A stretch of DNA of 64,000 nt from Nitrosopumilus sp. (GTDB lineage: Archaea; Thermoproteota; Nitrososphaeria; Nitrososphaerales; Nitrosopumilaceae), in contig OY759726.1 of the NCBI GenBank assembly GCA_963662625.1, forward strand, positions 992,001-1,056,000. Direction: 5' to 3'. Below are positions 8,294 to 62,435 of the stretch, in pieces (the stretch's first letter is position 1; each line of letters starts with the position of its first letter). The notes below the pieces were generated by a model. The model made no database searches, had not been told where the DNA came from, and worked only from the letters and a program-made list of their open reading frames with translations. The position numbers and the translations under genes are program-made.

Positions 8294-8530
8294 TTGGCTG
8301 CGGGGCGTTGCCAGTCCCCCCACCGCCGGCGCATTAGCGAGGGATTTCTGGGAAGACTGGGGGTCGCATTTCCAGTGGGGGAAAGCGGCCCAACCCGCAA
8401 CAGGATCAGGCACGGCACGTCCAACGTCCTGCACGACAGCACGGGGGAGATGCAGGAGCCGGTACGTGCCATGCTCGGCAACGGGGAGGTCAAGACCGTC
8501 AAGATGGTCCAATATTTAACACCGTAACTA
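8294..8530 (+). pseudogene. IS630-family transposase C-terminal relic
   Basis: HGTSNVLHDSTGEMQEPVRAMLGNGEVKTVKMVQYL aligns by eye with HTANRLYGSADEMKESIGTMLRTGEIKVAKMSDYL of the IS630 at 59.7 kb. Confidence 0.7.
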
Positions 8531-8904
8531 CGGCCAGCCGCCCGGCTCCCACGGGGCGCGCCTGATCGCGGACGGGGCGTGCGCGTCGCGGGACAACGTG
8601 CGGAGGTGCCGCGGCATGGGCGTGGGGCCGACCGTCCCGGCCAGGGTAGCGCCCGCCGCCAGGTGCAAGGGCGCCGGCGGCGCGTGGGGCGGGGCGGCGT
8701 CTGGCCGCCGGGGCCGCCTTTCCAACGATTCCCTACCGTGGGATCCCCGGGCTGTGCACATGCCGCCCCACGCACTGGACTCCTGACGTGCCCGACGATG
8801 TTCTGGGACGGCCTGCGCCCGCGGTTTCCGGCGTCTTCACGCCCAAAAGGCATGCCGCAAACCGATATAAATTGCCATATAACGGGGGCGCGTAACCCCT
8901 TCCA

Positions 8905-9894
8905 ATGACTGGAAAAAACGCGAAAACGATGTTGTTTGCCACTTTGATCGCTGCGATGAGTCTGCCGTTTGCTGCAATGCCAGTTTCTTCAGCAGAGTCT
9001 ACAACACCAAATACGGATGTGCTAATAGAGCGGGAATGGGCTACTAGTGAAAAAGAGCGAAACGCACATGATGCTTTTATTGCGTATGTTAAGCACGACA
9101 TGCCCGATAATGGTTGGAATAAAGATATTCTAAAACAAAATATCAAACTCTACAACTTGGAGACAGAGATAGGACGTGATGTTGATGGGTATGAACTAGT
9201 GGCATTAGTTGCTCAGAAAAATAAGATTTTTGGTTCTTACTTCCCGACTCATGCCGAGAAAAAACTCCATGATTGGGCGCTATCGCAGTATAAGATTCCA
9301 ACAACTCTGGAAGGAATTCAAGAACGATTCAGAGAGATTGTAGGAAATGGTAACGAAGACAGATCCCTCGCCATAGTGAACATTCTTAACCATATGGCGA
9401 ATCATGGAAATGTAGGCGGTGTGGTTCATGCATCAGATCCTAAATTCTGGAGCAATGTGGGGGTCACGTCATTATGTAATTACATAACTGTCTGTGGGGA
9501 TATGATAAGCGACGAAGTAAATCCAAGTGGACAGTTACGATTAGTAAATTCTGCCCACAAACATACAGCAACTGCTTATGTCGTATACGACCCATGCGAG
9601 ACCACCAACGATACATGTACTGTATTTACATACAATCATGGCAGTGGCCCACAAGAACAAACTTTCAATTCCCCCGATCATGTACAAGATGAGGCAGTAT
9701 ACGCTTCACTGACAAACTATTCCAATACGGCCAATAGCGTCATTGTTGAAACTAAAATCGTTGCCCCGTTGGCTGGAGGCTCGGTGGCTGGATTCGATAA
9801 TGATGGGTATGTGATTAAGACTGGCAACATGAACAACCCAAATGCATATGCAGAAAGTTACATCGAGATTAAATTTACTAGCAATGCTTGGTAA
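8905..9894 (+). CDS. Secreted hypothetical protein (329 aa), AT-rich island
   Basis: Signal peptide KTMLFATLIAAMSLPFAAMPVSSA; intact ORF; visibly lower GC than flanks. Confidence 0.8.
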   Translation: MTGKNAKTMLFATLIAAMSLPFAAMPVSSAESTTPNTDVLIEREWATSEKERNAHDAFIAYVKHDMPDNGWNKDILKQNIKLYNLETEIGRDVDGYELVALVAQKNKIFGSYFPTHAEKKLHDWALSQYKIPTTLEGIQERFREIVGNGNEDRSLAIVNILNHMANHGNVGGVVHASDPKFWSNVGVTSLCNYITVCGDMISDEVNPSGQLRLVNSAHKHTATAYVVYDPCETTNDTCTVFTYNHGSGPQEQTFNSPDHVQDEAVYASLTNYSNTANSVIVETKIVAPLAGGSVAGFDNDGYVIKTGNMNNPNAYAESYIEIKFTSNAW

Positions 9895-10060
9895 AGTCCA
9901 CATCTTTTTTTTGGTCATAATGCTATAGGAGCGGTGTCCTATCTTCTCCCATGCATGCATCCATCCATCGCCCAAGCAGGATGCGCTAGAATATATGGCA
10001 CCCGTTATCCTGTTTCAGTACTTGCGAACACATATTTTGATATGTAACTAGTGTAATGCC

Positions 10061-10450
10061 ATGATATTTTCCTTTAACAAAAAAAACGCCGTGGCCCTCG
10101 GGACGATATTGCTTTCAACATGCCTTGTCCTTGCATATGCATCTTACATACAACCTGCAACCGAGCCAAACATGCGAATTACTCCCGGCGCCAAAGCCCT
10201 TTCGTATGAAGAGGTACGCACATTTCTAATGACAGATCCAGGATCACAGCTAATAGTGCTGCCCCCCAACAATCCCGACTCTCTTGTGGTGCAGTCAAGC
10301 GGCCACTCTGCGGATTCCGGTTACGTCCTCAAGTCATATCAAAACGGAACAAGAGTATACATCGAGAAATCCCACGATGGGACCATACTAAAAGAGCTCA
10401 AATTCCATGACAAGCAAAGCAAGGAGGTCATAGTCTTCATAAAAGAGTAG
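10061..10450 (+). CDS. Exported or membrane-anchored hypothetical protein (129 aa)
   Basis: N-terminal KK plus hydrophobic stretch; AT-rich ORF. Confidence 0.7.
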   Translation: MIFSFNKKNAVALGTILLSTCLVLAYASYIQPATEPNMRITPGAKALSYEEVRTFLMTDPGSQLIVLPPNNPDSLVVQSSGHSADSGYVLKSYQNGTRVYIEKSHDGTILKELKFHDKQSKEVIVFIKE

Positions 10451-10516
10451 AGCCTCGATTCCAAGTCACTGCAATTTGCGTTACGCTGTAAGTCATGTTG
10501 GCTTTCTTTTTTTAGT

Positions 10517-11200
10517 TTGAAAATTCTTGTTCAAGTACGCGTGCAATTAGTTAGGGGCAAAACAACCCTCATCGTATTTTTGTCCGCAATCATAATATTT
10601 GGGACGTCGTCTCAAATCACTCTTGCTGAAATAAGCCAAGGCCGCGGCGGCTTTCATTCGTTAAAAGAAATTTCAGACAACATAGAGCGGGGGGATCCCA
10701 TCACTTTCCCTAATCCACAACATGTACTTGCTTTGCGACCAAACTCTAACTGGGTCTGCGTTTATTTTGAAACAGCAAGCCATCTGAACTGGGACATGGT
10801 ATTGTATTCAGAACCAGACTCGCCACAAATCACCACTTCTATTTTTTATGGGAACAAGCATCACTACGTCACATACCAGACAAACAAGGAGGCAGTTGGC
10901 TCTGTTAAGCGTAATTCAGACGCAGGTCATGACAGTGACGGCTACATTTTGGAAATATCAATGGTGCCAACGGCACAAGGTGATTTGACAGTGACGGTTC
11001 CCTCCATCGAGTCTGGCATGTTTGAAGATTACTGCGTAAAATTCAATAAAATACCAAACTCTCATTTCTTTATGTATTTGGCTGATGGCCACGAAACGCC
11101 ACATAAAGAAATGAACGTAAACCCAGTTTTCACCACCGTAAAATTACATTACGATCCGGGTACAGAATTAGTTGGGATGGCTCTTGCTTGTCGGATTTAA
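10517..11200 (+). CDS. Exported hypothetical protein (start uncertain)
   Basis: N-terminal hydrophobic helix; beta-rich C-terminal half (GDLTVTVP..FMYLADG) reminiscent of thaumarchaeal surface proteins. Confidence 0.65.
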   Translation: MKILVQVRVQLVRGKTTLIVFLSAIIIFGTSSQITLAEISQGRGGFHSLKEISDNIERGDPITFPNPQHVLALRPNSNWVCVYFETASHLNWDMVLYSEPDSPQITTSIFYGNKHHYVTYQTNKEAVGSVKRNSDAGHDSDGYILEISMVPTAQGDLTVTVPSIESGMFEDYCVKFNKIPNSHFFMYLADGHETPHKEMNVNPVFTTVKLHYDPGTELVGMALACRI

Positions 11201-11807: not shown

Positions 11808-12560
11808 TATAGCAACGCTCAAAAATTCTTGAGCACCAAGGACTTCCTGCTGGTGTACCCCAGAGCGTCCAGGTTGGCGTGAGACGTCCCCAGGCATTCG
11901 GACAGGGTGCGCCCCGCCTCCCCGGACGTCCCGCAATTCCCCGGCACCGGGACGTCGCGCATTGGCCTGCGCCAGTACTCCCCCGTGGCGTCCTGCCCCG
12001 GCGTGGCGGTGGGAAGGTACGCGGCCCCCGTGCCGGGGTTGCGTGGGACGTGTTTTTTCACGGCGCCGGCGGTGCGGGGAGGCGCGCCGTCCTTCATGAC
12101 ATGCACATTCCAGAAGTGATGGCGCGGCCCCTTGGGGCACAGCAGGAACGCGTCCTTGCCGGACCTCTAGCGGGCGTGGAAGTGCCTGCGGCCGCAGCTG
12201 CCGGCGCCCCGTACGCCGCCGCCTTGCGGCGGTTCCCGTTGTATCCCGCGACGATCCGCCCGCCCCTGGGGAACCGGCACTTCCTCCCGGCCGCCCGGTC
12301 GTGCATGCAAACCGCCTCGTCAATCATTACGGTGGCAAAACCCTGCCCTTCCAGGCGCGAGATCTTCCTTCTTGCCCTCCTCTGCCAGCCGCGTGTCCCG
12401 CCCGGGCCGGCCTTGTCGGCGTGGGCGCGCTGCGGCGCCTTGGGGGACAGGCCGACGTTCCCCATGATCCGCCCGGCCGACGGGACGTGGTACGCCACGA
12501 CCCATTTGTAGAGCTCCCACGACTTGGAGCTGCGTATGACGCCGCGGAGCCTCTCCGGGT
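11808..12560 (-). mobile_element. Degenerate IS630-family element (frameshifted transposase)
   Basis: YHV..GRIM..VGLSPK winged-HTH linker, VMIDEA, VMKDGAP, YLPTATPGQDATGEYWR (decayed P..SPELNPIE.W) spread over several frames; right boundary approximate. Confidence 0.75.
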
Positions 12561-13451: not shown

Positions 13452-16205
13452 TTGCCTATGAAAAGACAAGAAGGGCCGGGTGAGGAGCAGCCCGGCGCGG
13501 CGGTGGGCAGGCTGTTCGGCAAGTTCGGGTTTGGCTCCATGACCGAGATACAGAAAAAGGCGTCCCCGGCGGTCCTGCAGAAAAAAGACTGCCTGATAAT
13601 CGCGCCTACCGGCTCCGGCAAGACCGAGTGCTCCGTGATCCCGATCTTTTTCCTGGCAAGCAAGTCGAGGCGTCCCGGGAAGATCAAGGCCCTCTACGTC
13701 ACCCCCCTGCGGGCGCTGAACCGGGACGTCTTCCGCAGGATAACTAGGTACGCCGAGCAGAGCGGCCTCGCCATAGAGATCAGGCACGGCGACACGACGC
13801 AGGCGGCGAGGCGAAGGATAACCGAGAACCCCCCGGACGTACTGATCACCACGCCGGAGACCCTGGTCATACTGCTTACCCAGCCGAAGGTCCTCGCCGC
13901 GCTGTCCGACCTGGAGTGGATAATAGTCGACGAGGTGCACGAGCTGCTCTCAAGCGAGAGGGGCGCCCAGCTGTCCCTGAGCCTAGAGCGGCTGCAGCTC
14001 AACTCGAGGTTCCCGCTGACCCGGGTGGGCCTGTCTGCCACCGTGGGGAACTTCCAGGAGGCCGGCAAGTTCGTGGCGGGGACAAAGCGCAGGTGCCAGG
14101 TGATCCGGGACACCTCCGTACGGAAGTACGACGTGGAGGTGCGGTACGTGGACGGGACGATCTCCGACGTGGCCGACAAGATAGTCGGGTACGTGTCCGA
14201 TCTGGGCCTGGAGTCGCCGATCCTGCTCTTCACGAACACCAGGGGGGAGTCGGAGTTCCTGGCGTCGGTCCTCAGGGAAAAGTCCAGCGTCCCGGTGGAA
14301 CTGCACCACGGCTCGCTGTCCAGGGAGGCGCGGGAGGAGGCCGAGGAATGCCTCCGGGAGGGCCGGCCCGGGATAGTGGTCTGCACCTCGTCGCTCGAGC
14401 TGGGGCTGGACATAGGCTCGGTGGAGCTGGTGATCCATTACGGCTCCCCCCGGCAGGTGTCAAAGCTGATCCAGCGGATAGGCAGGAGCAGGCACAACCG
14501 CGACGCGTCGGCGCGCGGCCTGATAATCACGAACAACCCCGACGACGAGTTCGAGGCGAGGGCCATCCTGGACAGGATATCCGAGGGCTCCATCGAGGAC
14601 CAGAAGATACACGACGGCTCGCTCGACGTGCTGGCGCACCACCTGGTGGGCCTGGCTATGCAGAGGGGCGAGATCCCGGTGGAGGCAGCCATGGAGACCG
14701 TCACGCAGGCGTACCCGTTCCGGGGCCTGGGGCTGGCCGACCTGGTGGGGGTGCTGGAGCTGCTCGACTCGAACTACCTCGTGTTCTTTGACAGGAAGAA
14801 CATGGCCTTCCGGAAGAAGGCCCGCTCGTTCAAGTATTACTTTGAGAACCTCTCCACGATCCCTGACATACTGAAGTTCAAGGTGTTTGACAGCGTCGGC
14901 AAGAGGATCATCGGGACCCTGGACCAGAGGTTCGTGGGGGACTTTGGGGACTCTGGCAACATCTTCGTGCTGAAGGGCTCCCAGTGGCGCATACTCAACG
15001 TGGACGAAAAGTCCCTGGCGGTGAACGTCGAGCCGTTCCGGGGCGGCGGAATCACCGTCCCGTACTGGGAGGGCGAGAGCATACCCATCGACTACCGCAC
15101 CGCGAGCAGGGTGGGGTCGTTCCGCGCCATGGTCAGGCGCGGCTCCCTGGAGCTGGCCAACAAGACCATAGAGGGGCTGGACTTTGAGCAGATCCCCGAC
15201 GGGGGGAACATCGTGGTGGAGTCGAGCCGGGTACAGGGGTCCGTGGTGGCCCATTCCTGCCTCGGCACCAGGATCAACGCCACGCTGTCCACCCTGCTCT
15301 CCTCCATGATCTCCTCCGTGCTGGGATCGGTGGTGGACACGCGCTCTGACGGCTACAGGATAGTCCTGTCCTCGCGGTCCCGCATATCCGAGCGCGTGTT
15401 CCTCGAGGTCCTGACCGACGAGTACGACCTGTCCTCCGTGGTGACGGCCTCGCTTGCGGGGACCCACAACGTGAACTGGAGGACGTGGTGCGTCGCAAAG
15501 AAGTTCGGCATCGTGGGCCGCGGCGCGGTCTACGAGAAAAAGTCGGCGCGGTTCCTGTACGAGCGGTACGTGGGGACCCCGCTGGTGGAGGAGGCGCTGA
15601 GGGAGCTGTTCCATGACAAGTACGACCTGCCCGGCACCGGCAGGATCCTGGAGAGGATCAGGGACGGCGAGATACGCGTGCGGTGGGTGGAGGTGGACAA
15701 GTTCTCGAGGCTGGCGGAGCCCGTCCTGGACCACACCGCAAAGTACTACTCGTCACCGGCAAACCTTGACCAGGGGATACTCGACCTGGTCAGGTCCAGG
15801 CTGTACAAGACCAAGCACCGCCTGGTCTGCGCGAGGTGCGGGGGATGGGAGCGGGTGGTGGAGACGCGGGAGGTGGAGGGCCCCCTGTCCTGCCCCAGGT
15901 GCAGGGCGCGCCAGATCACGGCGACCTTCTACTCGGACTACGACCTGCCGAAGATAATACGCAAGAAGGCGCAGGGGGGGAGGCTCACCGGGGAGGAGAG
16001 GCACAAGTACGACCGCGCCTGGAAGGTCTCCTCGCTGGTCGAGAACTTCGGGAAGACGGCGATAGTGGTGATGTCCGGCTACGGGGTGGGAGCCGACACC
16101 GCGGCCCGGATACTCCGCAACATGGTCGACGAGGAGCACCTCTTCAGGCAGATCTACGAGGCGGAGAGGCAGTACGTGGTGACCAGGGGGTTCTGGGACT
16201 CTTAG
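13452..16205 (+). CDS. Lhr-like DEAD/DEAH-box helicase with C-terminal Zn finger
   Basis: APTGSGKT, TPLRALNRD, DEVH, SAT, HHGSLS, SSLELGLDIG, QRIGRS, CxxC..CxxC. Confidence 0.9.
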   Translation: MPMKRQEGPGEEQPGAAVGRLFGKFGFGSMTEIQKKASPAVLQKKDCLIIAPTGSGKTECSVIPIFFLASKSRRPGKIKALYVTPLRALNRDVFRRITRYAEQSGLAIEIRHGDTTQAARRRITENPPDVLITTPETLVILLTQPKVLAALSDLEWIIVDEVHELLSSERGAQLSLSLERLQLNSRFPLTRVGLSATVGNFQEAGKFVAGTKRRCQVIRDTSVRKYDVEVRYVDGTISDVADKIVGYVSDLGLESPILLFTNTRGESEFLASVLREKSSVPVELHHGSLSREAREEAEECLREGRPGIVVCTSSLELGLDIGSVELVIHYGSPRQVSKLIQRIGRSRHNRDASARGLIITNNPDDEFEARAILDRISEGSIEDQKIHDGSLDVLAHHLVGLAMQRGEIPVEAAMETVTQAYPFRGLGLADLVGVLELLDSNYLVFFDRKNMAFRKKARSFKYYFENLSTIPDILKFKVFDSVGKRIIGTLDQRFVGDFGDSGNIFVLKGSQWRILNVDEKSLAVNVEPFRGGGITVPYWEGESIPIDYRTASRVGSFRAMVRRGSLELANKTIEGLDFEQIPDGGNIVVESSRVQGSVVAHSCLGTRINATLSTLLSSMISSVLGSVVDTRSDGYRIVLSSRSRISERVFLEVLTDEYDLSSVVTASLAGTHNVNWRTWCVAKKFGIVGRGAVYEKKSARFLYERYVGTPLVEEALRELFHDKYDLPGTGRILERIRDGEIRVRWVEVDKFSRLAEPVLDHTAKYYSSPANLDQGILDLVRSRLYKTKHRLVCARCGGWERVVETREVEGPLSCPRCRARQITATFYSDYDLPKIIRKKAQGGRLTGEERHKYDRAWKVSSLVENFGKTAIVVMSGYGVGADTAARILRNMVDEEHLFRQIYEAERQYVVTRGFWDS

Positions 16206-25470: not shown

Positions 25471-26007
25471 ATGAAGATCGCCTTGGACGTAGACGGAGTG
25501 CTGGCAGACGTGATCGAGCCGTGGCTGGCCTACAACAACACGGTAAGGAAGCCTCTCGAGAAGGCGGACGTCACGGACTGGGACTTTTGGCGGCGGCTCG
25601 GGATCGACCGGCTCCTCTTCTACGAGGAGCTCTCGTTGTGCTGGAAGGACTGGGCCTCGATCCCCCCCACGGAGCGGGACCTGGCCCGGGCCACCGAGGA
25701 CCTCTCGGCCCTCGGCCAGGTAGACATCCTCACTGCCCGTGAAAAGTCAACCGACCACTTCGTAAAGGAATGGCTGAAACTGCACGGGATATCCTACGGC
25801 AGCTATGTCTCGGTCGACTATGGGCCCAAGAAGGCGGAGTTCGACTACGACGTGTTCATCGACGACTCGCCGCTGAACGCGTCACGCTTCATGCAGGGGG
25901 GCAAGGCCGTCCTGCTGTATTGCCAGCCGTGGAACCGCGGGGTCTCCGGCCCCGGCATGCGCAGGATCTCTAGCCTGCACGACGCGGTCAAACTCTTGAA
26001 ACCCTGA
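25471..26007 (+). CDS. HAD-family 5'(3')-deoxyribonucleotidase-like protein
   Basis: IALDVDGVLAD, LTAR, FIDDSP, QPWN. Confidence 0.85.
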   Translation: MKIALDVDGVLADVIEPWLAYNNTVRKPLEKADVTDWDFWRRLGIDRLLFYEELSLCWKDWASIPPTERDLARATEDLSALGQVDILTAREKSTDHFVKEWLKLHGISYGSYVSVDYGPKKAEFDYDVFIDDSPLNASRFMQGGKAVLLYCQPWNRGVSGPGMRRISSLHDAVKLLKP

Positions 26008-26173
26008 CCCCCGCGCTGTCGTAGAACCTTATCTTGACGTGGTGGCCGTCCCGCACGTGCTCTGCGTGGTTGGTCTTTAGCAGGTCCTTTATCTTGTCCT
26101 CGTTGTAGAACTCCACGTTGTACCTGCCGAGGACCTTCCTACAGTTGTCGCAGTAGATCTCCCTGAACTTCAT
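25988..26173 (-). CDS. Small hypothetical protein, putative C2H2-type metal site
   Basis: 61 aa, CDNC...HAEHVRDGHH; host-like codon usage. Confidence 0.65.
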   Translation of the reverse strand: MKFREIYCDNCRKVLGRYNVEFYNEDKIKDLLKTNHAEHVRDGHHVKIRFYDSAGVRVSRV

Positions 26174-26247
26174 TCCCGCCTGGCACCTTAAACCCTATGG
26201 CCGCGAAGATAATAAAGACACTTATTCTCGTTTAAAAAACCCCCATT

Positions 26248-26332
26248 GCGGGAATCGCCCAGCCTGGTCAACGGCGTAAGGTTCAGGTCCTTATCTTCTA
26301 GGAGTTCGTGGGTTCGAATCCCACTTCCCGCA
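26248..26332 (+). tRNA. tRNA-Leu(CAG)
   Basis: GCGGGAA/TTCCCGC acceptor stem, TAAGG-TTCAGGT-CCTTA anticodon arm, long variable arm, GGTTCGAATCC; TTTAAA box upstream. Confidence 0.95.
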
Positions 26333-26337
26333 CTACA

Positions 26338-26370
26338 TGTAGGGCGGAAATCCTTTATGCCCGCCCTACA
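26338..26370 (+). repeat. 10-bp perfect inverted repeat just after tRNA-Leu (hairpin or att arm)
   Basis: TGTAGGGCGG-N13-CCGCCCTACA. Confidence 0.8.
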
Positions 26371-26375
26371 ATACC

Positions 26376-26695
26376 ATGTGCACGGGCCAGGGCGACCTTC
26401 CGGAACGCGAGTCCGCCCGACAGTTCCTCAGGGGCTTCCGCACGGAGGCGACCCGGGAGTCGTACCGCAAGAAGCTTGCGCAGTTCGTGCGGCTTGCCGG
26501 GACCACCCCGACGCGCTGCTCGAGGAGGCGCATGCCAAGCCCAAGTCTGTCCAGAACATGATAATCGACCACATCGAGGAGCGCAAAAAAGAGGTGAGCG
26601 GCTCCACCATACACCAGACTGTCACGGCGATGAAGCATTTTTTTGAGATGAACGACGCGGAGGAAGCCATATCGTGGTCTAAGATAGCAAGATCT
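26376..26695 (+). pseudogene. Tyrosine recombinase/integrase N-terminal relic, frameshifted and truncated
   Basis: FLRGFRTEATRESYRKKLAQF, frameshift near 26510, then MIIDHIEERKKEVSGSTIHQTVTAMKHFFEMND..ISWSKI (core-binding domain pattern); no catalytic domain; adjacent to tRNA 3' end. Confidence 0.7.
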
Positions 26696-26906
26696 GCACC
26701 TCTGTTAGATGTCATGATTGGTGTCGAATCCATTGATAAAAAGCACATCTTCCAAAAACAGACATAAAAAACATAAGCTACCATAATGAAAACGGATGGT
26801 CGTACTGGACTACGTGTGATAATGTAAATGAGACTAATAATGGGTTTGTCATACAGTGCGATCCGCCATATCGAACTATTAAGGCAGGAATTGGAGGATA
26901 CAAGGA

Positions 26907-27515
26907 TTGTTAAGCAAAATCTTGGTTCTAGGCACAGTTGTAGCGATGGGCATAACAGCACTCCTGTACTTGGATTCCCAAACCACACATGAGCTCCCAT
27001 ACGTTGGAAAATATTCGGAATCCCTGGAAGGCCAAAAACGCAGCACGCCATTTCCAAACCTTGAAACCATGTATGGCACCCAGATCGAAGGTGTCAGTAA
27101 ATTGAGTGACGCGTCTGATTCGGTCGTGAAAATATCGACCAGCCTGCCCAAAGGAGCAGAGTTTAAGCTGCTGTTCGATTTTATAGTGCAGACTGTCATT
27201 TACGGGCCGGCATCCGTTGACTACGACACGCGTAGCGACAACATCGATACCGTGCTGGATAACCATGGAATCATGGTGTTGTACAGCGATCTTCCCGATG
27301 GACTTGGCATTGTTCAATGGCAGAAGGCCTACCTGGAAGACAGCCCGCGCGCGGAGCTTATCCGTGCCAACGGTGTTGACGCCACAGGCCTGAGCGGAGA
27401 TCCTGAATTGGGGGAAATGTCCAAACCCATCTTCAATAAAGGAAGGACACTGGTTGAGGTGTTTTCAGTGGTGTATGCCCTTACCGACCTGATCAAGATG
27501 GCAGAAAATATCTGA
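26907..27515 (+). CDS. Membrane-anchored or exported hypothetical protein (202 aa), AT-richer island
   Basis: N-terminal hydrophobic helix; intact ORF. Confidence 0.7.
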   Translation: MLSKILVLGTVVAMGITALLYLDSQTTHELPYVGKYSESLEGQKRSTPFPNLETMYGTQIEGVSKLSDASDSVVKISTSLPKGAEFKLLFDFIVQTVIYGPASVDYDTRSDNIDTVLDNHGIMVLYSDLPDGLGIVQWQKAYLEDSPRAELIRANGVDATGLSGDPELGEMSKPIFNKGRTLVEVFSVVYALTDLIKMAENI

Positions 27516-28046: not shown

Positions 28047-28157
28047 GCTGGTCGGCGACTTTGACGCTTCCATGCGCATGGTGACTGAACAGCCTCTGTG
28101 ACAGGTGCACCTGCCCGCGCTGGTCGGCGACTTTGACGCTTCCATGCGCATGGTGAC
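28047..28157. repeat. 39-bp perfect direct repeat separated by 33 bp
   Basis: GCTGGTCGGCGACTTTGACGCTTCCATGCGCATGGTGAC at 28047-28085 and 28119-28157. Confidence 0.95.
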
Positions 28158-28584
28158 GGCGTGCGCGGTAATACGCAGGGCATCTTGCGGCGGCTGCGGG
28201 ACGGTCGCGTGCGCCGAATCGCCGTTCCCGGAGGGCGCGTCGCCGGGGCCCGTGGAGCTCGGGGTGGTGCCCGCGCTGTTTGCCACGGGCTGCGCCGACG
28301 CCCGCACCGCGTGGTTCTTCCGCGCCGTGTCCGGGTTCGGGATGGCGGCCAACGCGGTGGCCGCGGCGCGCCGCGCGGTGGCCGCGCCCCTGGCGGACCC
28401 GATCCTTTCCATGCGGGAGGCGATACGGGCCCGGCCGTGGGCGCGGGCGGGACCATGTTCAGGAGGGGCGACGGCCACTGGGGGTGCGTCTGGGTGGCGC
28501 ATGCCGACGCCGCGGTGTGGGTGCTGTTCTCCCCCGCCAGGGCCGCCGCCGAACACCTATAAGCGATCCTCCCGCATCCAGCCC

Positions 28585-34585: not shown

Positions 34586-34869
34586 AATGCAAATCCGTCC
34601 GCCTAATTTTTATATCTTTGTTAGTTTTTATCCTGTTGCTCAATCCCCCCATGATCGCAAAAACGCGGCGGATCTCGTGCCTGGGGGCGCCTCTTTCTGC
34701 CCGCGGCGGCGCGCCTGCTGCCGCTCGCCCTGCCCGGACGGGCCCGTCCCGCGCGTAGCCGCAGGCATGGGCCGCCCCCGGGCGCGGCGCGCGGCCCGCG
34801 GGGGCGGGAGCTTGCAGCGCCCCTGCCAAAACAAAGCTTAAAATCATCAGTGGGCACGAGACGATCTAC

Positions 34870-47280: not shown

Positions 47281-48351
47281 ATGCGCATACTGCAGGCCGG
47301 CAACCCGAACTTCGGGTACGTCATGGCAAGGGAGCTCAGGAAGAGGGGGGTGGAGGCCGACCTCCTAGTCTCGCGCCAGGCCGTCACCGGCCCCGACCTT
47401 TCCATCAACGACCCGACGAGCCACGACCCGGGCGCCGGCGCCTGCCCCGACTGGGTGATCTTCTACGACCGCGACGGCACGGGCAAGACCGCCCGGGTCA
47501 TCCGGGCGATGAAAGGGTACGACTTGGTCTCCGCGTACAACACGCTGCCCATCCACGCCATGCTCTCGGGCAGGCCCTACGTAGCGGTGACCGGCGGGGA
47601 CGAGCTCCGCAGGAAGGCGTTCGAGCGGTCGGTGACGGGGTACCTGCTACGCAGGGCGTACAGGAAGGCAGACAGGCTGGTCTACACGTGGCCCGTGGCA
47701 AAGCCCTACGTGGAGAGGCTGGGGCTGGACGGCGCGGTGTTCATCCCGCGCACCTGGGACGCCGGGCGCTTTGTAAGGCGGGGCAGCCCGCCCGGCGACG
47801 GCCCGCTGCGCATATTCATGCCCACTGCACAGCTGTGGGACCTGAAGGGAAACGACAAGTTCCTCAGGGCGTTTGCCAGGCTGTGCGCCGAGGGCAGGGA
47901 CGTGTTCCTGTACTGCGTGGACTGGGGGCGGGACTCGGGCAGGGCCAGGGAACTGCTGGCAAGGCCAGAGTGCGCGAGGCGCACGGAGCTGGTCCCGGGC
48001 CCCGTGTCACGGGACGCGATGGCAGGCTACATGGAGAAATCGCACGTGCTGGCAGACCAGTTCAACACGGGCTCCTTTACCCGCGTGGGGATCGAGGCGT
48101 TCCACTTTGGGATCCCGGTCATGGTCAAACTCGACGAGCGGCTGTACGTGGAGGCGCACGGGGACCTCCCGTCGGTGCTGCAGTGCGGCACCGAGGAGGA
48201 GATCTACGGGCGGATCGAATGGGCGCTCGGGGACAGGGGAGGCCTGGGGAGGATGGGAGACGATTCCAGGCGGTGGGCGGCCAGGCACTTCGACCTGCAG
48301 AAAAATATTGACAGACATGTAGAACTTTATCAAGGGATTCTTAAAAAATGA
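47281..48351 (+). CDS. GT4-like glycosyltransferase, copy 1
   Basis: GT-B layout, KGND, ADQFNTGSF..GIEAF..GIPV; ATG at 47281. Confidence 0.85.
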   Translation: MRILQAGNPNFGYVMARELRKRGVEADLLVSRQAVTGPDLSINDPTSHDPGAGACPDWVIFYDRDGTGKTARVIRAMKGYDLVSAYNTLPIHAMLSGRPYVAVTGGDELRRKAFERSVTGYLLRRAYRKADRLVYTWPVAKPYVERLGLDGAVFIPRTWDAGRFVRRGSPPGDGPLRIFMPTAQLWDLKGNDKFLRAFARLCAEGRDVFLYCVDWGRDSGRARELLARPECARRTELVPGPVSRDAMAGYMEKSHVLADQFNTGSFTRVGIEAFHFGIPVMVKLDERLYVEAHGDLPSVLQCGTEEEIYGRIEWALGDRGGLGRMGDDSRRWAARHFDLQKNIDRHVELYQGILKK

Positions 48352-54264: not shown

Positions 54265-54939
54265 ATGACCACCGCACCGACCCAGTGCTTTGTCAGGCTG
54301 TCCAGCTTTGCAGATCTGGCAAGATACGTCTGTGCCTTCAGGGTGCACCCGCTGCGCGCGTACTCCCACAAGTACCGTAACACCAGGATAATCTCGACCA
54401 CCATGGTGCTGAGCAACACCCTGCTGATATTTTACGTCCCCATGAGCAAAACCGGGAGGTACATATCTTACAACACCTCCAAAGGAAAGGAGTCATGCGA
54501 CATCGTGGAGTCTACCAAGGCCATATCGCTTTACGCCCCAATCATAAACTTCGAGTCCAAGATCTCCCCGCTGAGGACCAAGTCAAAAAACCACACTGAC
54601 CGGCTCAACCCGGTCAAGCTGGGGGACATCGGTAGCCTGGCAAGGCTCACCTACGACCCGGACTTTCCAGATGAGCAGGACCTCGCGCTGTTCGCGTTCA
54701 AGCACGGGAGGTCTTGGGTGCTGGGTTACGTCACCTCGCTGGACGTGCACGACATCGTTTACCAGTTCAACTACATAGACCTCGAGTCGGAGCCATCCAA
54801 GCCGTTCCTGAAATACATGGGAAACAAGGGCAGGGATCCGGAATTTGCCGACAGCATAGGGCACGGGTTTACCTACCTGCCGGTAATAAAGATAAAAGTG
54901 GATCATCCCATCTTCGGGATGCGCGGCCGCAGCGCCTAG
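54265..54939 (+). CDS. Hypothetical protein (224 aa) with possible internal duplication
   Basis: ATG at 54265; halves share L.S..DLAR / L.DIGSLAR and YAPII / YLPVI motifs. Confidence 0.7.
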   Translation: MTTAPTQCFVRLSSFADLARYVCAFRVHPLRAYSHKYRNTRIISTTMVLSNTLLIFYVPMSKTGRYISYNTSKGKESCDIVESTKAISLYAPIINFESKISPLRTKSKNHTDRLNPVKLGDIGSLARLTYDPDFPDEQDLALFAFKHGRSWVLGYVTSLDVHDIVYQFNYIDLESEPSKPFLKYMGNKGRDPEFADSIGHGFTYLPVIKIKVDHPIFGMRGRSA

Positions 54940-55042
54940 TCACCCCCGCGAGGCAAGCTCCGTGATCTTCCGGGCGTGCCGTCATCCCAAGTGGCGCGGG
55001 ATCTGGCTAGTCACCCCCGCGAGGCAAGCTCCGTGATCTTCC
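54936..55042. repeat. 36-bp perfect direct repeat separated by 35 bp (duplicated 3' end of the downstream minus-strand gene)
   Basis: CTAGTCACCCCCGCGAGGCAAGCTCCGTGATCTTCC at 54936-54971 and 55007-55042. Confidence 0.95.
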
Positions 55043-58562: not shown

Positions 58563-58606
58563 GCGGCCTATTTAGCCTGTGCAGCGGGCCTGCAGGCGCC
58601 GCCCCC

Positions 58607-58858
58607 TCAGGCGGTGCCTGCGCTCTCCTTGATCTCAGAGATCGTCCCCAGGACCGAGTCCATCCTGACGATGGCGATCTTACCGTCCCAGCCAAGCGCG
58701 ACGTACCAGTCCCCCGCGTCGGAGTGGTATTTGGTCTCCAGGGTCTTGATCCCGCCGGGCTCGGCGCCGTACGCCTTCGCGACGCCGGAGACCGCGAGTG
58801 CTATGGCGTCCCCCTCCTTCTCCAGCCTCCTCTTCATCAGTCCTATCCCGGGGCTCAC
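58607..58858 (-). CDS. Small hypothetical protein (PepSY-like layout)
   Basis: EGDAIALA..WYVALGW..AIVRMDSVLGTI. Confidence 0.6.
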   Translation of the reverse strand: MSPGIGLMKRRLEKEGDAIALAVSGVAKAYGAEPGGIKTLETKYHSDAGDWYVALGWDGKIAIVRMDSVLGTISEIKESAGTA

Positions 58859-58906
58859 GGTTTCGGTCCGCGCCGTCCTCTAATAAAGCCTTCAGGCAGC
58901 CCGTCC

Positions 58907-61094
58907 GTATGAGGTCACCACCCCTACACTGTCTTGGATGCCCCGCCTGACAGGGATTTCCCGTGCCCCCCACGTGATCATGCACGTCATGAAGTAGGAC
59001 CGCCTGTCCCTCCAGGGCTTCCCGACCTTGATCTGGCCGCCTGTCTTTCGGGACACCACCATGTGCCGCAGGCCGCGCCCGGGGGCGCTGTCCGTGGGTC
59101 CCGCCCCCCGTGCCCCGGGAACGCAGACCGGCGGGGCAGCGGCGCCTGCAGCCTGCCCGCCAGGGGGGCAAGCGCGGTGCCCCTGGCGTCTCCGTGCCCG
59201 AACAGCAGCCTGCGCATCCCAGACCCGGAGGCGCGGCGCAGGCGCGCCGAGTGCCTGCCCGAGGCGGCGCCCGCCAGCGCCCCGGCGTACACGTCTGACA
59301 CCTGCCGGCGCGGCACCCCGGCGCGCGGCGCCGCCCCCTTCCTCTCCGCCGCGTGCCGCAGCTCCCGCAGCCCGCGGGGCCGGCACGGCCGGCGGCGCCC
59401 GCCCGGGCCGGACCTCCCGTACGCGGAGGGCCTGCCGGACGTGACGATCCCGCGGTACCCGTCCATGTACCTGCCGGGCACCTGCGACCCCCTGCTCCGG
59501 CCGTCCACGGTCACGGCGTTCCTGCCGGACTGGATGACCCGCGCCCACCCGTCCTCTCCCGCCAGGCTGGCGCGCGTCCCGTCGGCCCCGGCCCTCTTGG
59601 ACCTCCTGGCGCGTCCCACGATGTCCCGGAACGGCCCGCGCATCGCGCCGCGGGTGCGCCCCGTCACGTTTATGGCTCTGCATGTTTCGCGATCCTCACC
59701 CCGGTGATCTCCCGTACGTAGTGATCACATTAGATAATCGCTCATCTTGGCGACCTTGATCTCCCCCGTGCGCAGCATCGTCCCTATTGATTCCTTCATC
59801 TCGTCGGCCGACCCGTACAGCCTGTTGGCAGTGTGCAGCCCCGTGTTGCGCCACTGTCCCTCCGCCGGGCTGGGGTCTGGCGCGTGGGCGGGAAAGTGCA
59901 TGAGCACGACGTCCCCGCCGCGGCCCCTGACGGCTCCCGTCACCTTGCGCGACTTGCGGCAGCCCGCGCTGCCCGCAGGGACGGGCACCTTCCCGGACCT
60001 CCTGCGGAGCCTGCCGAGAAAGTCCGAGAAGCTGTCCCCGTTAGCCCTCTCGCAGGACGGGCAGCAGGACCCGTCCCGGCGCGGCGCGCCAAACGAGCAG
60101 GACCGCTGCCCCGGCAGCGCGGGCGGGGCCGCGGCCCCGGCGCCCCGGGGCGCCCGCGCCTTCTTCTGCACCAGCCCGATTATGTGGGACGCCTCGTCCT
60201 GGGCGACGACGGCGTACCCCCCGGGGAGCAGCGCGGGACGGCGCGCCTTGCTTTTTTTTAAACGCCCTCCGCCCGGGTCCCGGGGCCGGCTTGGGGTGCC
60301 TGGGCCTGGGGGTCTGCCTCGTGAAGCCGATCCTGCGCGGCACCTCGCATGTCCCGGAGGTGCCGTACCGCACCCCGAACCTTTTCTCCATGCGGGCCGC
60401 CAGGAGGCGGGCGGCCCGCAGGCCCGACCCGAACCCGAACCCCTGCGGGCCCGCGAGGGGGCCTTTCCTGGGCTGCGCCAGCTGCGGCCCGCCCGGCTCC
60501 GGCGGGGTGCCGGGCCTCCTCTCGTCGTACCTGCCGTGGATCCCCGTCCGCATGGCGCGCATGAGCCACCCGCGCACCGTGGAGTAGGGCCGGTTCAGCG
60601 CCCCGCCTATCTGGCGTATGGACGCGCCCTCCTTGCGCATAACGTACGCGAGCAGCCTCGCGCGTGCCTTCGGATCCTTTTCCGTCCTGCGGGTCTTCCT
60701 GAGGTACCCCGCCCCAGTCTTGGGAAGGAACTCCCTCCCTGTTGGTATGATGATGTCTTTCATGCGTGGCGTCAGGCTTGCCACGATCTGGACCTTTCGG
60801 TCTAATATTGTTGGCTGTTTTGTGAGCGATTATTAGTTGGGATTACTACGGCACCCGCCATCTTCCCGAACGGGGCGGCCGCGCGGAGCGGCGCGGCCAC
60901 CGCGGCCACCGTGTTCCTGCCGCAGCTCCCGCGCGCCGGGAGGCCGCCTGGCGCCACGTGCAACTTGCAGCACCCGGGGCCCCCGGCGGCCTGGCCGTTC
61001 TGCGCCTTGCCACGCACGTACTGGCACCTCCTGCCATAGGGATCGGCATGATCGCGCCTTGTTGGTTAAAGGGTCAGCACACGTGACCTCATAC
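58907..61094 (-). mobile_element. Degenerate IS66-family element interrupted by IS630
   Basis: 12-bp perfect TIR GTATGAGGTCAC; flanking 8-bp target duplication GCCCGTCC/GCCAGTCC; decayed motifs ADGT..GW..SRGSQVP..YRGIVTSGRPSAY..LRELRH. Confidence 0.8.
59719..60848 (-). mobile_element. Degenerate IS630-family element (about 1.13 kb)
   Basis: TA at both ends, imperfect 28-bp TIR (59717-59744 / 60823-60850, 22/28), HTH (ARLLAYVMRKEGASIRQIG..STVRGW), FKK slippery TTTAAAAAAA, decayed PAHAPDPSPAEGQW. Confidence 0.85.
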
Positions 61095-61259
61095 GCCAGT
61101 CCCGGCGGACGGGCGCGCGATCCGGTCCTGCCACGGCATGAAGGGCTCGGAGGGCTTCGATCCCTCGACCTGGCGGTCCGAAGCCGCCCGCACTATCCTG
61201 ACTGTGCTACGAGTCCAAAAAAATAAGAATTTAACGGGCCTAAATACCTGTCTTGGTAC

Positions 61260-62435
61260 ATGAAGGTATCAAGGAAGGTGGTCGGAGTGGAGTACGCAAT
61301 CCGGGACATCGTGCTTGCCGCCAGGAGGGTGCAGCAGAAGGGGATGCGGGTAGACTACCTCAACATAGGCGATCCGGTGCAGTTCGGCTTCCAGCCGCCC
61401 GACAACGTGCGGCAGGCGCTCGTCGACTCCGTCAGGAGGGGCGAGAACTACTACTCCCCGTCCGAAGGCCTGCCGGAGCTCCGCGACGCGATAGCGAAAA
61501 AAGAGGGCGCCAACGGCTTCCAGACATCCCCCGACGACGTACTGATCACCAACGGCGTCTCCGAGGGGCTGGACATGGTGATGTCGTCGATCGTGGAGGA
61601 GGGCGACGAGGTGCTGCTGCCCGGGCCGTACTACCCGCCGTACGCGTCGTACGTCCGGCTGCACGGCGGGGTGCCCGTCGAGTTCGCAGTCGACCTGGAG
61701 CACTCCACGCCCGACATAGGAGACATAATGTCCAAGATCACCCCGAAGACGGTCGCAATCTGCCTGATCAGCCCGAACAACCCCACGGGCGTGGTGTTCA
61801 ACGAAAAGTCGCTGAGGGAGCTCGTGGACATCGCGAACCAGCACGGGCTTTACATAATCTGCGACGAGATATACGACCGGATAGTGTTCGACGAGGAGTT
61901 CGTCGGCATCGGTAGGGTGGCAGGCGACTCCCCGGTGATAGTCCTCAACGGCTTCTCCAAGGTCAACCTGATGTCGGGGTGGCGCATCGGCTACATCGCG
62001 TTCGGCCGGTCCCCGGGGCTCGACGGCCTGCGCGAACACCTGCCAAAGCTGGCCCGGGTCAGGATAGCGACGAACCTGCCGGTCCAGCACGCGGCCCTGG
62101 AGTCCCTCCGGGGGCCGCAGGACTACATATCCCGGTTCGTGTCCGAACTGAAGGCGCGCAGGGACTTCGTGGTGGGGCGCCTCAACTCGATGCCGGGGCT
62201 GTCCTGCCCCGTCCCGAGGGGCGCGTTTTACGCGTTCCCGAGGATCGAGACCGACAGGTTCGGCACCGACAAGGAGTTCGTCACGGGCCTCCTGGAGTCG
62301 AAGGGGGTCCTGACCGTCCACGGCTCAGGCTTCGGGGAGCAGTTCGGCAGCGGGCACTTTAGGCTGGTCTTCCTGCCCGGCATGGACGTGCTGGAGTCCG
62401 CAATGGACAAGATCGAGGAGTTCGTGGGTCAGTAG
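61260..62435 (+). CDS. Class I/II PLP aminotransferase (alanine aminotransferase-like)
   Basis: VEYAIRDIV, LNIGDP, NNPTG, DEIYD, GFSK..GWRIG. Confidence 0.92.
   Translation: MKVSRKVVGVEYAIRDIVLAARRVQQKGMRVDYLNIGDPVQFGFQPPDNVRQALVDSVRRGENYYSPSEGLPELRDAIAKKEGANGFQTSPDDVLITNGVSEGLDMVMSSIVEEGDEVLLPGPYYPPYASYVRLHGGVPVEFAVDLEHSTPDIGDIMSKITPKTVAICLISPNNPTGVVFNEKSLRELVDIANQHGLYIICDEIYDRIVFDEEFVGIGRVAGDSPVIVLNGFSKVNLMSGWRIGYIAFGRSPGLDGLREHLPKLARVRIATNLPVQHAALESLRGPQDYISRFVSELKARRDFVVGRLNSMPGLSCPVPRGAFYAFPRIETDRFGTDKEFVTGLLESKGVLTVHGSGFGEQFGSGHFRLVFLPGMDVLESAMDKIEEFVGQ

Follow-up and report, generated by a model that had tools for sequence, protein, structure and literature searches.

By what kind of mutation do dead insertion sequences (ISs) decay in a GC-rich archaeal genome? 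The question is raised by positions 58907-61094 of the window analyzed here, a stretch of 64,000 nucleotides of the Nitrosopumilus sp. contig OY759726.1, where the relic of an IS630-like element lies inside the relic of an IS66-like element. A preliminary description of this DNA had proposed that such relics decay by one-directional A>G and T>C change, and that either the lineage has a GC-biased mutation spectrum or an element-directed process similar to repeat-induced point mutation (RIP) inactivates IS copies. Support was found for both, but neither alone fits all results. We lean slightly towards the reading that the relics were eroded mainly by A:T>G:C transitions in two superimposed processes, of which the second reached IS DNA preferentially. 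The first would be a lineage-wide pressure from A or T (W) towards G or C (S). The second would convert 5'-TNNA-3' to 5'-CNNG-3' in one step, which corresponds to A>G on both strands, 3 bp apart, with any bases in the middle. Several relic families bore the footprint of the second process, whereas it went undetected in native genes, and this paired TNNA>CNNG change is the unusual part of the findings.

A BLAST search of positions 58601-61300 against the genome resolved the locus (71.6% GC) into the following parts, all on the minus strand.

58907 to 59718, minus strand: 3' part of the IS66-like relic, representing the C-terminal half of the transposase, with the motifs ADGT and TSGRPSAY; 75.1% GC; 93% DNA identity to genome positions 401914-402726.
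59719 to 60847 (BLAST limits about 59717-60859), minus strand: frameshifted IS630-like relic inside the IS66-like relic, carrying HFPAHAPDPSPAEGQW; 68.9% GC.
60848 to 61094, minus strand: 5' part of the IS66-like relic, in two pieces (60848-60997 and 60977-61094); 72.1% GC.

The IS630-like relic was assigned as nested because both of its flanks continue the IS66-like element. The latter is about 1.47 kb long, and its fullest copy is located at genome positions 401258-402729 (L001). The two 5' pieces in the window correspond to positions 519-659 and 1-118 of this copy, and about 400 internal bases between them are gone. The IS630-like element is about 1.1 kb long; the window copy is 87.6-89.5% identical to the copies at 14885-15948 and 1750928-1752067. 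IS66 elements have accessory tnpA and tnpB open reading frames (ORFs), terminal inverted repeats, and an 8-bp target duplication, and elements of the IS630/Tc1-mariner group duplicate a TA target site.

Copy L001 keeps a frame of 456 codons (L001:440-1810) that matched the Pfam family DDE_Tnp_IS66 (PF03050) with an E value of 2.8e-9 and 37 bits at a cut-off of 23.1. PF03050 is also carried by the intact homologues P0003 to P0011; the IS66 ORFs of the window gave no Pfam family match. For the IS630 parts in the window, HTH_33 was found with 29 bits (cut-off 25), and DDE_3 reached 17.4 bits, below its cut-off of 28.6. The best IS630 copy (L005) scored 65 bits for HTH_33, 36.1 bits for HTH_32, and 23.9 bits for DDE_3, the last again below the cut-off of 28.6; the IS630 homologues P0026 and P0031 carry PF13358.

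All four motifs cited in the preliminary description were present: ADGT and TSGRPSAY in the ORF 58987-59667 (minus strand), PAHAPDPSPAE in the ORF 59725-60171 (minus strand), and ATPGQDATGEYW in a second IS630-like relic at 11.9 kb. The catalytic motifs of IS66 transposases are DET and SD.Y. The intact homologues accordingly had IDET and TSDKY at the places where the window copy has ADGT and TSGRPSAY. The least-decayed IS66-like copy, L001, retains ADET, as does the consensus of the copies, and L001 also retains TSD. Every copy examined of both families was degenerate, with frameshifts, stops, or replaced catalytic residues, and on the evidence of its sequence the IS66-like copy of the window is dead. 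Several frames stay open at 70-80% GC, so that open frames tell little in these relics.

The direction of decay was polarized against intact homologues, including an intact IS66-like copy from the relative G014. Columns were scored only if at least 75% of at least four intact proteins agreed. Within codons, scoring was confined to the first and second bases, and to amino acids for which both of these are unambiguous. Over 152 conserved columns of the IS66-like family, W>S changes had affected 24-39% of the W sites and S>W changes 0-6% of the S sites in the eight copies listed; the values for the window copy were 27/69 and 3/63, respectively. Nearly all of these W>S changes were A>G or T>C. Over 86 columns of the IS630-like family, the window copy had 11/58 W>S and 0/64 S>W changes, compared with 3/58 and 1/64 in one of the other full copies and 20/58 and 0/64 in the other. 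With 3, 11, and 20 changed W sites, the three full IS630-like copies thus form a graded series. The amino acid changes in the relics were E>G, D>G, H>R, W>R, Y>H, N>D, N>S, and I>T. These alignments recovered the previously listed replacements D>G, E>G, Y>H, N>S, N>D, and I>T. C>T and G>A changes were found at 1-3% of sites in relic pairs. Judged by these per-site rates against intact homologues, the directional GC-ward erosion is real and no artefact of viewing AT-rich codons only.

To call the decay one-directional, as was done earlier, is nevertheless too strong and does not hold for recent changes. Among the singletons of the IS66-like family there were 71 W>S and 96 S>W changes, with an equilibrium GC content near 0.7 (about 0.72). 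The per-site rates were 0.032-0.034 for W>S and 0.012-0.016 for S>W at all three codon positions. By codon position (first, second, and third), the singletons numbered 63, 62, and 45 with equal per-site rates, which indicates that the relic copies evolve neutrally. Polarization within the family was kept for young changes only, owing to mis-polarized calls: 8 of 22 S>W singletons at conserved sites proved to be positions where one copy had kept the ancestral A or T. The comparison of the three IS630 copies was rooted on the least-decayed one. Private changes of the window IS630 copy numbered 26 W>S and 24 S>W.

Native genes were found to change in the same direction. In the aminotransferase gene next to the relic, the GC content at third codon positions (GC3) is 0.91 in the present genome (G000; the compared genomes are designated G001, G002, etc.) versus 0.38 in the congener G001, at 82% protein identity. 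Native changes were polarized in 11 syntenic genes, with the ancestral state defined by agreement of G001, G002, and an outgroup. At codon position 3, W>S changes had occurred at 502/585 sites and S>W changes at 9/286 sites; the corresponding values were 79/1461 and 5/819 at position 2 and 69/988 and 10/1023 at position 1. Relics of several genomes were then put through one common pipeline. G000 gave 121/374 W>S and 16/438 S>W changes, whereas IS66-like relics of the same family gave 33/471 and 114/493 in the low-GC genome G020 and 106/647 and 138/729 in the low-GC genome G002. Taken together, the sequence comparisons point clearly to a lineage-wide W>S substitution pressure in G000. Because native genes move GC-ward and the relics of low-GC relatives decay AT-ward or in balance, no targeted process is needed for the GC-ward decay as such.

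The first process has converted about 86% of the ancestral A/T third positions in native genes. In live genes, selection restrains change at codon positions 1 and 2; in dead genes, AT-encoded catalytic residues are broken (D>G, E>G, H>R, W>R, Y>H). Mutation in prokaryotes is generally AT-biased. The relics of the low-GC genome G020 conform to this rule in the same IS family, but dead DNA in G000 shows the opposite net direction. Of the proposal of a GC-biased spectrum in this lineage, the direction of change was borne out in native genes and relics; the pressure may be a mutation bias or a fixation bias. Derived W>S states occur at every frequency among the copies, whereas S>W states are either rare or fixed.

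The second process is indicated by coupled changes in the relics. On the branch between the least-decayed IS630 copy and its two fellows, 12 cases combined T>C at position i with A>G at position i+3, versus 0.81 expected; none of 2000 shuffles within the available T and A sites reached 12. Among the IS630 copies, 24 TNNA sites occurred in the T..A and C..G states only, compared with 8 sites with single changes only. The middle two bases of the pairs were arbitrary. In the IS66-like family there were 13 double-only versus 14 single-only TNNA sites, whereas the controls (A..T, A..A, and T..T, as well as other distances within 1-7) gave 0-4 double-only versus 7-35 single-only sites. With the least-decayed copy as proxy ancestor, the outcomes for TNNA sites (both changed/T only/A only/neither) were 16/1/0/12 and 14/1/2/11 in two IS630 comparisons and 7/2/1/15 and 6/2/1/14 in two IS66 comparisons. 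The IS66 copy of the window, which is 93% identical to the proxy ancestor, had no TNNA doubles (0/0/1/10). In the window, the signature is carried by the IS630 relic.

59883 to 60768, minus strand: 14 paired TNNA>CNNG sites of the IS630 relic, scored against the least-decayed copy, such as TGGA>CGGG at 60495/60492 and TCGA>CCGG at 60114/60111.

These 14 pairs compare with 1.53 expected (none of 5000 shuffles reached 14), and paired hits account for 35% of this relic's 81 W>S transitions. Base by base, the relic frequency of T>C was 0.45 with A at +3 and 0.22-0.27 otherwise, and that of A>G was 0.43 with T at -3 and 0.11-0.20 otherwise. No rise with the partner base was seen at distances 2 or 6, and at distance 4 the value was 0.35 with A versus 0.36 with C. 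Coupling was also seen when all repeats of the genome were compared with each other: the odds ratio was 6.9 in a linked cluster of 107 loci (controls 1.3-2.2) and 16 in an unannotated family of 7 loci outside this cluster (controls 0.5-2.1). A weaker coupling was also noted for TNA>CNG, that is, at distance 2 (outcomes 6/2/1/12 and 4/3/3/19; odds ratios 36 and 8.4).

Two other origins of the pairs were ruled out. Sequential hits, with a slow first and a fast second change, do not apply, as no rise occurred when the partner was already mutated (T>C 0.27 with G at +3; A>G 0.20 with C at -3). The lack of effect of an already changed partner indicates that the pairs are simultaneous doubles and not rapid successive hits. 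A period-3 artefact was rejected because there was no coupling for A..T, A..A, or T..T at distance 3 or for T..A at distance 6.

By the geometry of B-DNA, the two adenines of a TNNA site, one on each strand and offset by 3 bp in the 3' direction, would face each other across the minor groove. Such an arrangement, with one adenine per strand, suggests a two-fold symmetric, adenine-directed, deamination-like event. We infer that the second process may be a deamination-like activity of this kind that prefers IS DNA. It might stem from a host response or arise as a by-product of transposition intermediates. The stronger proposal, that an undescribed activity turns both adenines of TNNA into guanine in one event and prefers transposon DNA, is offered tentatively, and we rate it as rather unlikely. 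Many hits are common to several copies, which implies that already mutated copies went on multiplying; this fits mobilization in trans or mutation linked to transposition.

Among the alternatives, a single genome-wide neutral process has to be weighed first. GC-biased mutation or gene conversion would act everywhere, TNNA>CNNG would be a normal component of it, and the relics would merely be unsaturated. We regard this as doubtful. In addition to the GC-ward change of native genes, the long-term per-site ratio in the relics is about 9:1, corresponding to an equilibrium GC content near 0.9 that matches the native GC3 of 0.88-0.91. The copy frequency of W>S variants exceeds that of S>W variants, a pattern expected under biased gene conversion. 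However, the coupling was not detected in native genes. At native third positions (76 orthologue pairs, 28,001 codons) the partner base did not raise conversion: T>C was 0.879 with A at +3 versus 0.838-0.897 otherwise, and A>G was 0.795 with T at -3 versus 0.757-0.827 otherwise. Nor were adjacent third-position T..A pairs depleted in native genes: among 179,007 codon pairs, the counts for distances 3, 6, and 9 were 796, 795, and 723, respectively. In the six relic copies counted, T..A at distance 3 amounted to 0.53-0.83 of their own level at distances 6 and 9. Of 24 polarized native TNNA third-position pairs (11 genes), 7 were half-converted, against about 5% predicted from the relic ratio of doubles to singles. 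Native internal repeats (TSP_3, SBP_bac_3, and FG-GAP proteins) had 1 in-phase versus 10 anti-phase double differences. Differences between the low-GC relatives were uncoupled as well, with odds ratios of 1.17-1.42 that were not significant. From these comparisons the paired process is likely specific to relics.

Several observations weigh against the two-process reading, and some of them favor a single process. Throughout the family, adjacent third positions statically favor T..A and C..G over T..G and C..A, with odds ratios of 3.37 in G000, 1.62 in G001/G002, and 2.13 in G005/G015; this association of Y..R at distance 3 is absent in 34 genes of E. coli (0.86). It could reflect a codon-pair preference or a family-wide mutational coupling. 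The CNNG excess is 1.06 in native ORFs and 1.125 in relic loci, so that native ORFs have about half of the relic excess, which would be compatible with a weaker genome-wide coupling. Static k-mer tests by genome compartment had low sensitivity and gave similar small signals everywhere. TNNA depletion pooled over 114 relic loci was only 0.94, and the copies within a family are not independent, so that pooled tables overstate significance. The native tests are limited in power, with third positions 86% saturated and positions 1 and 2 under selection; the absence of doubles among 25 changed native TNNA sites at positions 1 and 2 is expected either way. Young private changes are nearly balanced, with 1 W>S versus 11 S>W in the IS66 copy of the window. 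No usable single-copy non-IS pseudogene was found for comparison: 62 of 138 G001 ORFs had no strict orthologue, and tblastn gave just two hits, each with a single stop. A screen of 20 ORFs with high GC content at second codon positions (GC2) likewise provided no usable pseudogene; seven had Pfam matches, two to DDE_3 transposase relics and five to others, including a subtilase with SdrD_B, a C-5 methylase, DUF285, and SNase.

The absence of a distinguishing gene also counts against the two-process reading. A survey of NucS/EndoMS, endonuclease V (EndoV), and deaminase genes, suggested in the preliminary description, was performed on five genomes: G000, two low-GC congeners, and two other GC-rich relatives. 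NucS, EndoV, and MutS were found in none of the five. UDG, HhH-GPD, and Pur_DNA_glyco were present in all five, and each genome encodes one deaminase-fold gene, the low-GC ones included. No repair or deaminase gene in this set thus separates G000 from its low-GC relatives. A mutator arising by loss of repair found no support either, as none of the repair genes surveyed is absent in the GC-rich lineage yet present in the low-GC relatives.

A dedicated host defence similar to RIP, in which IS or repeated DNA is recognized and inactivated by paired adenine-to-guanine hypermutation, appears improbable to us. It would account for the strong pairs in unrelated families (IS66-like, IS630-like, and an unannotated family at 394347), for the failure to detect them in native genes, and for the fact that all examined copies of both families are dead. 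Yet the survey gave no candidate enzyme, given that the deaminase-fold gene is shared with the low-GC genomes. Repetition alone is not the trigger, since internal repeats of native proteins escape the signature; the AT-rich foreign islands remain untouched; most relic transitions are single hits that the genome-wide drive explains; and the hits shared among copies mean that mutated copies kept spreading. Of the element-directed process proposed earlier, the paired signature in relics (about one-third of the W>S changes of the window IS630 copy), undetected at native third positions, stood, whereas a RIP-like defence is conjectural.

The likeness to known mutators is partial. Fungal RIP produces C>T changes at CpA, is AT-ward, and depends on a RID-type methyltransferase. 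As in RIP, multi-copy mobile DNA is full of one-direction transitions here and every copy is dead. Unlike RIP, the relic change is A:T>G:C, GC-ward, and occurs as TNNA>CNNG pairs, in an archaeon without a sexual cycle whose native internal repeats are spared. ADAR and APOBEC enzymes act on RNA or on single-stranded DNA of retroelements, ADAR giving A>G. They share with the present case clustered one-directional transitions in parasitic sequences, but the relics are archaeal DNA transposons hit symmetrically on the two strands, and no additional deaminase gene turned up in the five genomes. Neither AT-biased mutation nor biased gene conversion is known to couple changes at distance 3 in an orientation-specific way. 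The portion of the literature available to us held no description of a prokaryotic RIP counterpart or of GC-ward IS hypermutation.

That there was no directional decay at all, the elements having arrived GC-rich and the motif list being an ascertainment artefact of the AT-rich codons for D, E, N, Y, and I, is very improbable: the relic GC3 of 0.92-0.94 is unchanged from that of the intact homologue in the GC-rich relative G014 (GC3 0.94; 72% GC overall) and young singletons are balanced in count, but the per-site rates at positions 1 and 2 are still about 9-fold apart, GC2 has risen from 0.53 to 0.63-0.73, the IS630 copies are graded, and same-family relics of the relatives go the other way, so that the idea is refuted as a full explanation and stands solely for the third-position share of GC. 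The agreement in GC3 indicates that much of the high GC content of the relics predates their death, and the codon periodicity of the live gene is retained in them.

Why some prokaryotes are GC-rich despite generally AT-biased mutation is a long-standing question, for which dead ISs serve as neutral markers. GC-ward pressure on non-functional DNA argues against selection on codons or proteins as its cause. If the second process acts as proposed, it would correspond to a GC-ward RIP in a prokaryote and would be a natural means of editing adenine to guanine in double-stranded DNA. The TNNA>CNNG footprint can be counted, and other genomes can be screened for it; an enzyme behind it, should there be one, would be of interest for transposon control and as a DNA-editing activity.

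The compositional claims made for the window were examined as well. The relics are the GC-richest DNA in the window, as had been stated: the GC-richest windows of 300 bases were 59001-59401 (74-83%), 28101-28301, and 59901-60401. Three spacers had been named together with the relics as GC-rich. All three are GC-rich, but two of them are repeats themselves and the third is single-copy. These stretches and the other features near or related to the relics are as follows.

8530 to 8830: repeat with 77% GC; at least 11 further sites in the genome match the first 168-184 bases at 90-95% identity.
28160 to 28550: repeat with 77% GC, present in 3 copies.
34680 to 34820: single-copy intergenic stretch with 85% GC.
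11819 to 12106, minus strand: ORF of the other IS630-like relic, carrying ATPGQDATGEYW; multi-copy at 80-84% identity.
61142 to 61216, minus strand: tRNA-Arg (tcg) predicted by ARAGORN, 47 bases past the end of the relic.

A stretch of 78 bases abutting the left end of L001 (genome 401181-401258) recurs at about 15 loci with 84-97% identity, including 30138, 62318, 1629468, and 1675204. This stretch may represent a family of tRNA genes or an attachment sequence derived from a tRNA.

The genome is a single contig of 1,858,698 bases with 63.4% GC, and it encodes archaeal AmoA; the organism is an ammonia-oxidizing archaeon. Its congeners have about 41% GC and most of the family 33-38%, with an overall range of 33-42% among the relatives. 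In the portions available of two papers, sponge-associated Thaumarchaeota are given 47-67% GC compared with 32-34% in free-living ones, the symbionts are enriched in transposases or their inactive derivatives (PMC7848895, PMC6697440), and the cause of the raised symbiont GC content 'requires further investigation' (PMC6697440). With its archaeal amoA and 63% GC next to relatives of 33-42%, G000 resembles these symbionts. As far as those portions go, the papers give composition only, whereas substitutions were polarized for G000 and act on non-functional DNA.

In an all-against-all comparison, repeats of at least 150 bases made up 17.6% of G000. The load of dead mobile DNA is unusually high for a genome of 1.86 Mb, with one linked cluster of relic families comprising 107 loci. 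Low-GC stretches also occur in this 63% GC genome, in the window at 9001-11000 (42-44% GC) and 26001-27000 (51% GC); they are presumably foreign DNA of recent origin, as yet unaffected by the GC drive. Genome positions 203081-204328 (L071) encode a C-5 cytosine DNA methylase (Pfam 216 bits) that appears intact and whose GC content is unusually high at the first and second codon positions (0.69 and 0.60). Long contig pieces from four sequencing runs of one study were identical to the window except for one credible difference, A>C at 48129 (depth 6). At 54935-55007, contigs of runs X1 and X2 omit 71 bases, and 36 bases fit either side; judging from the sequence, this looks like a tandem-repeat length variant within the population.

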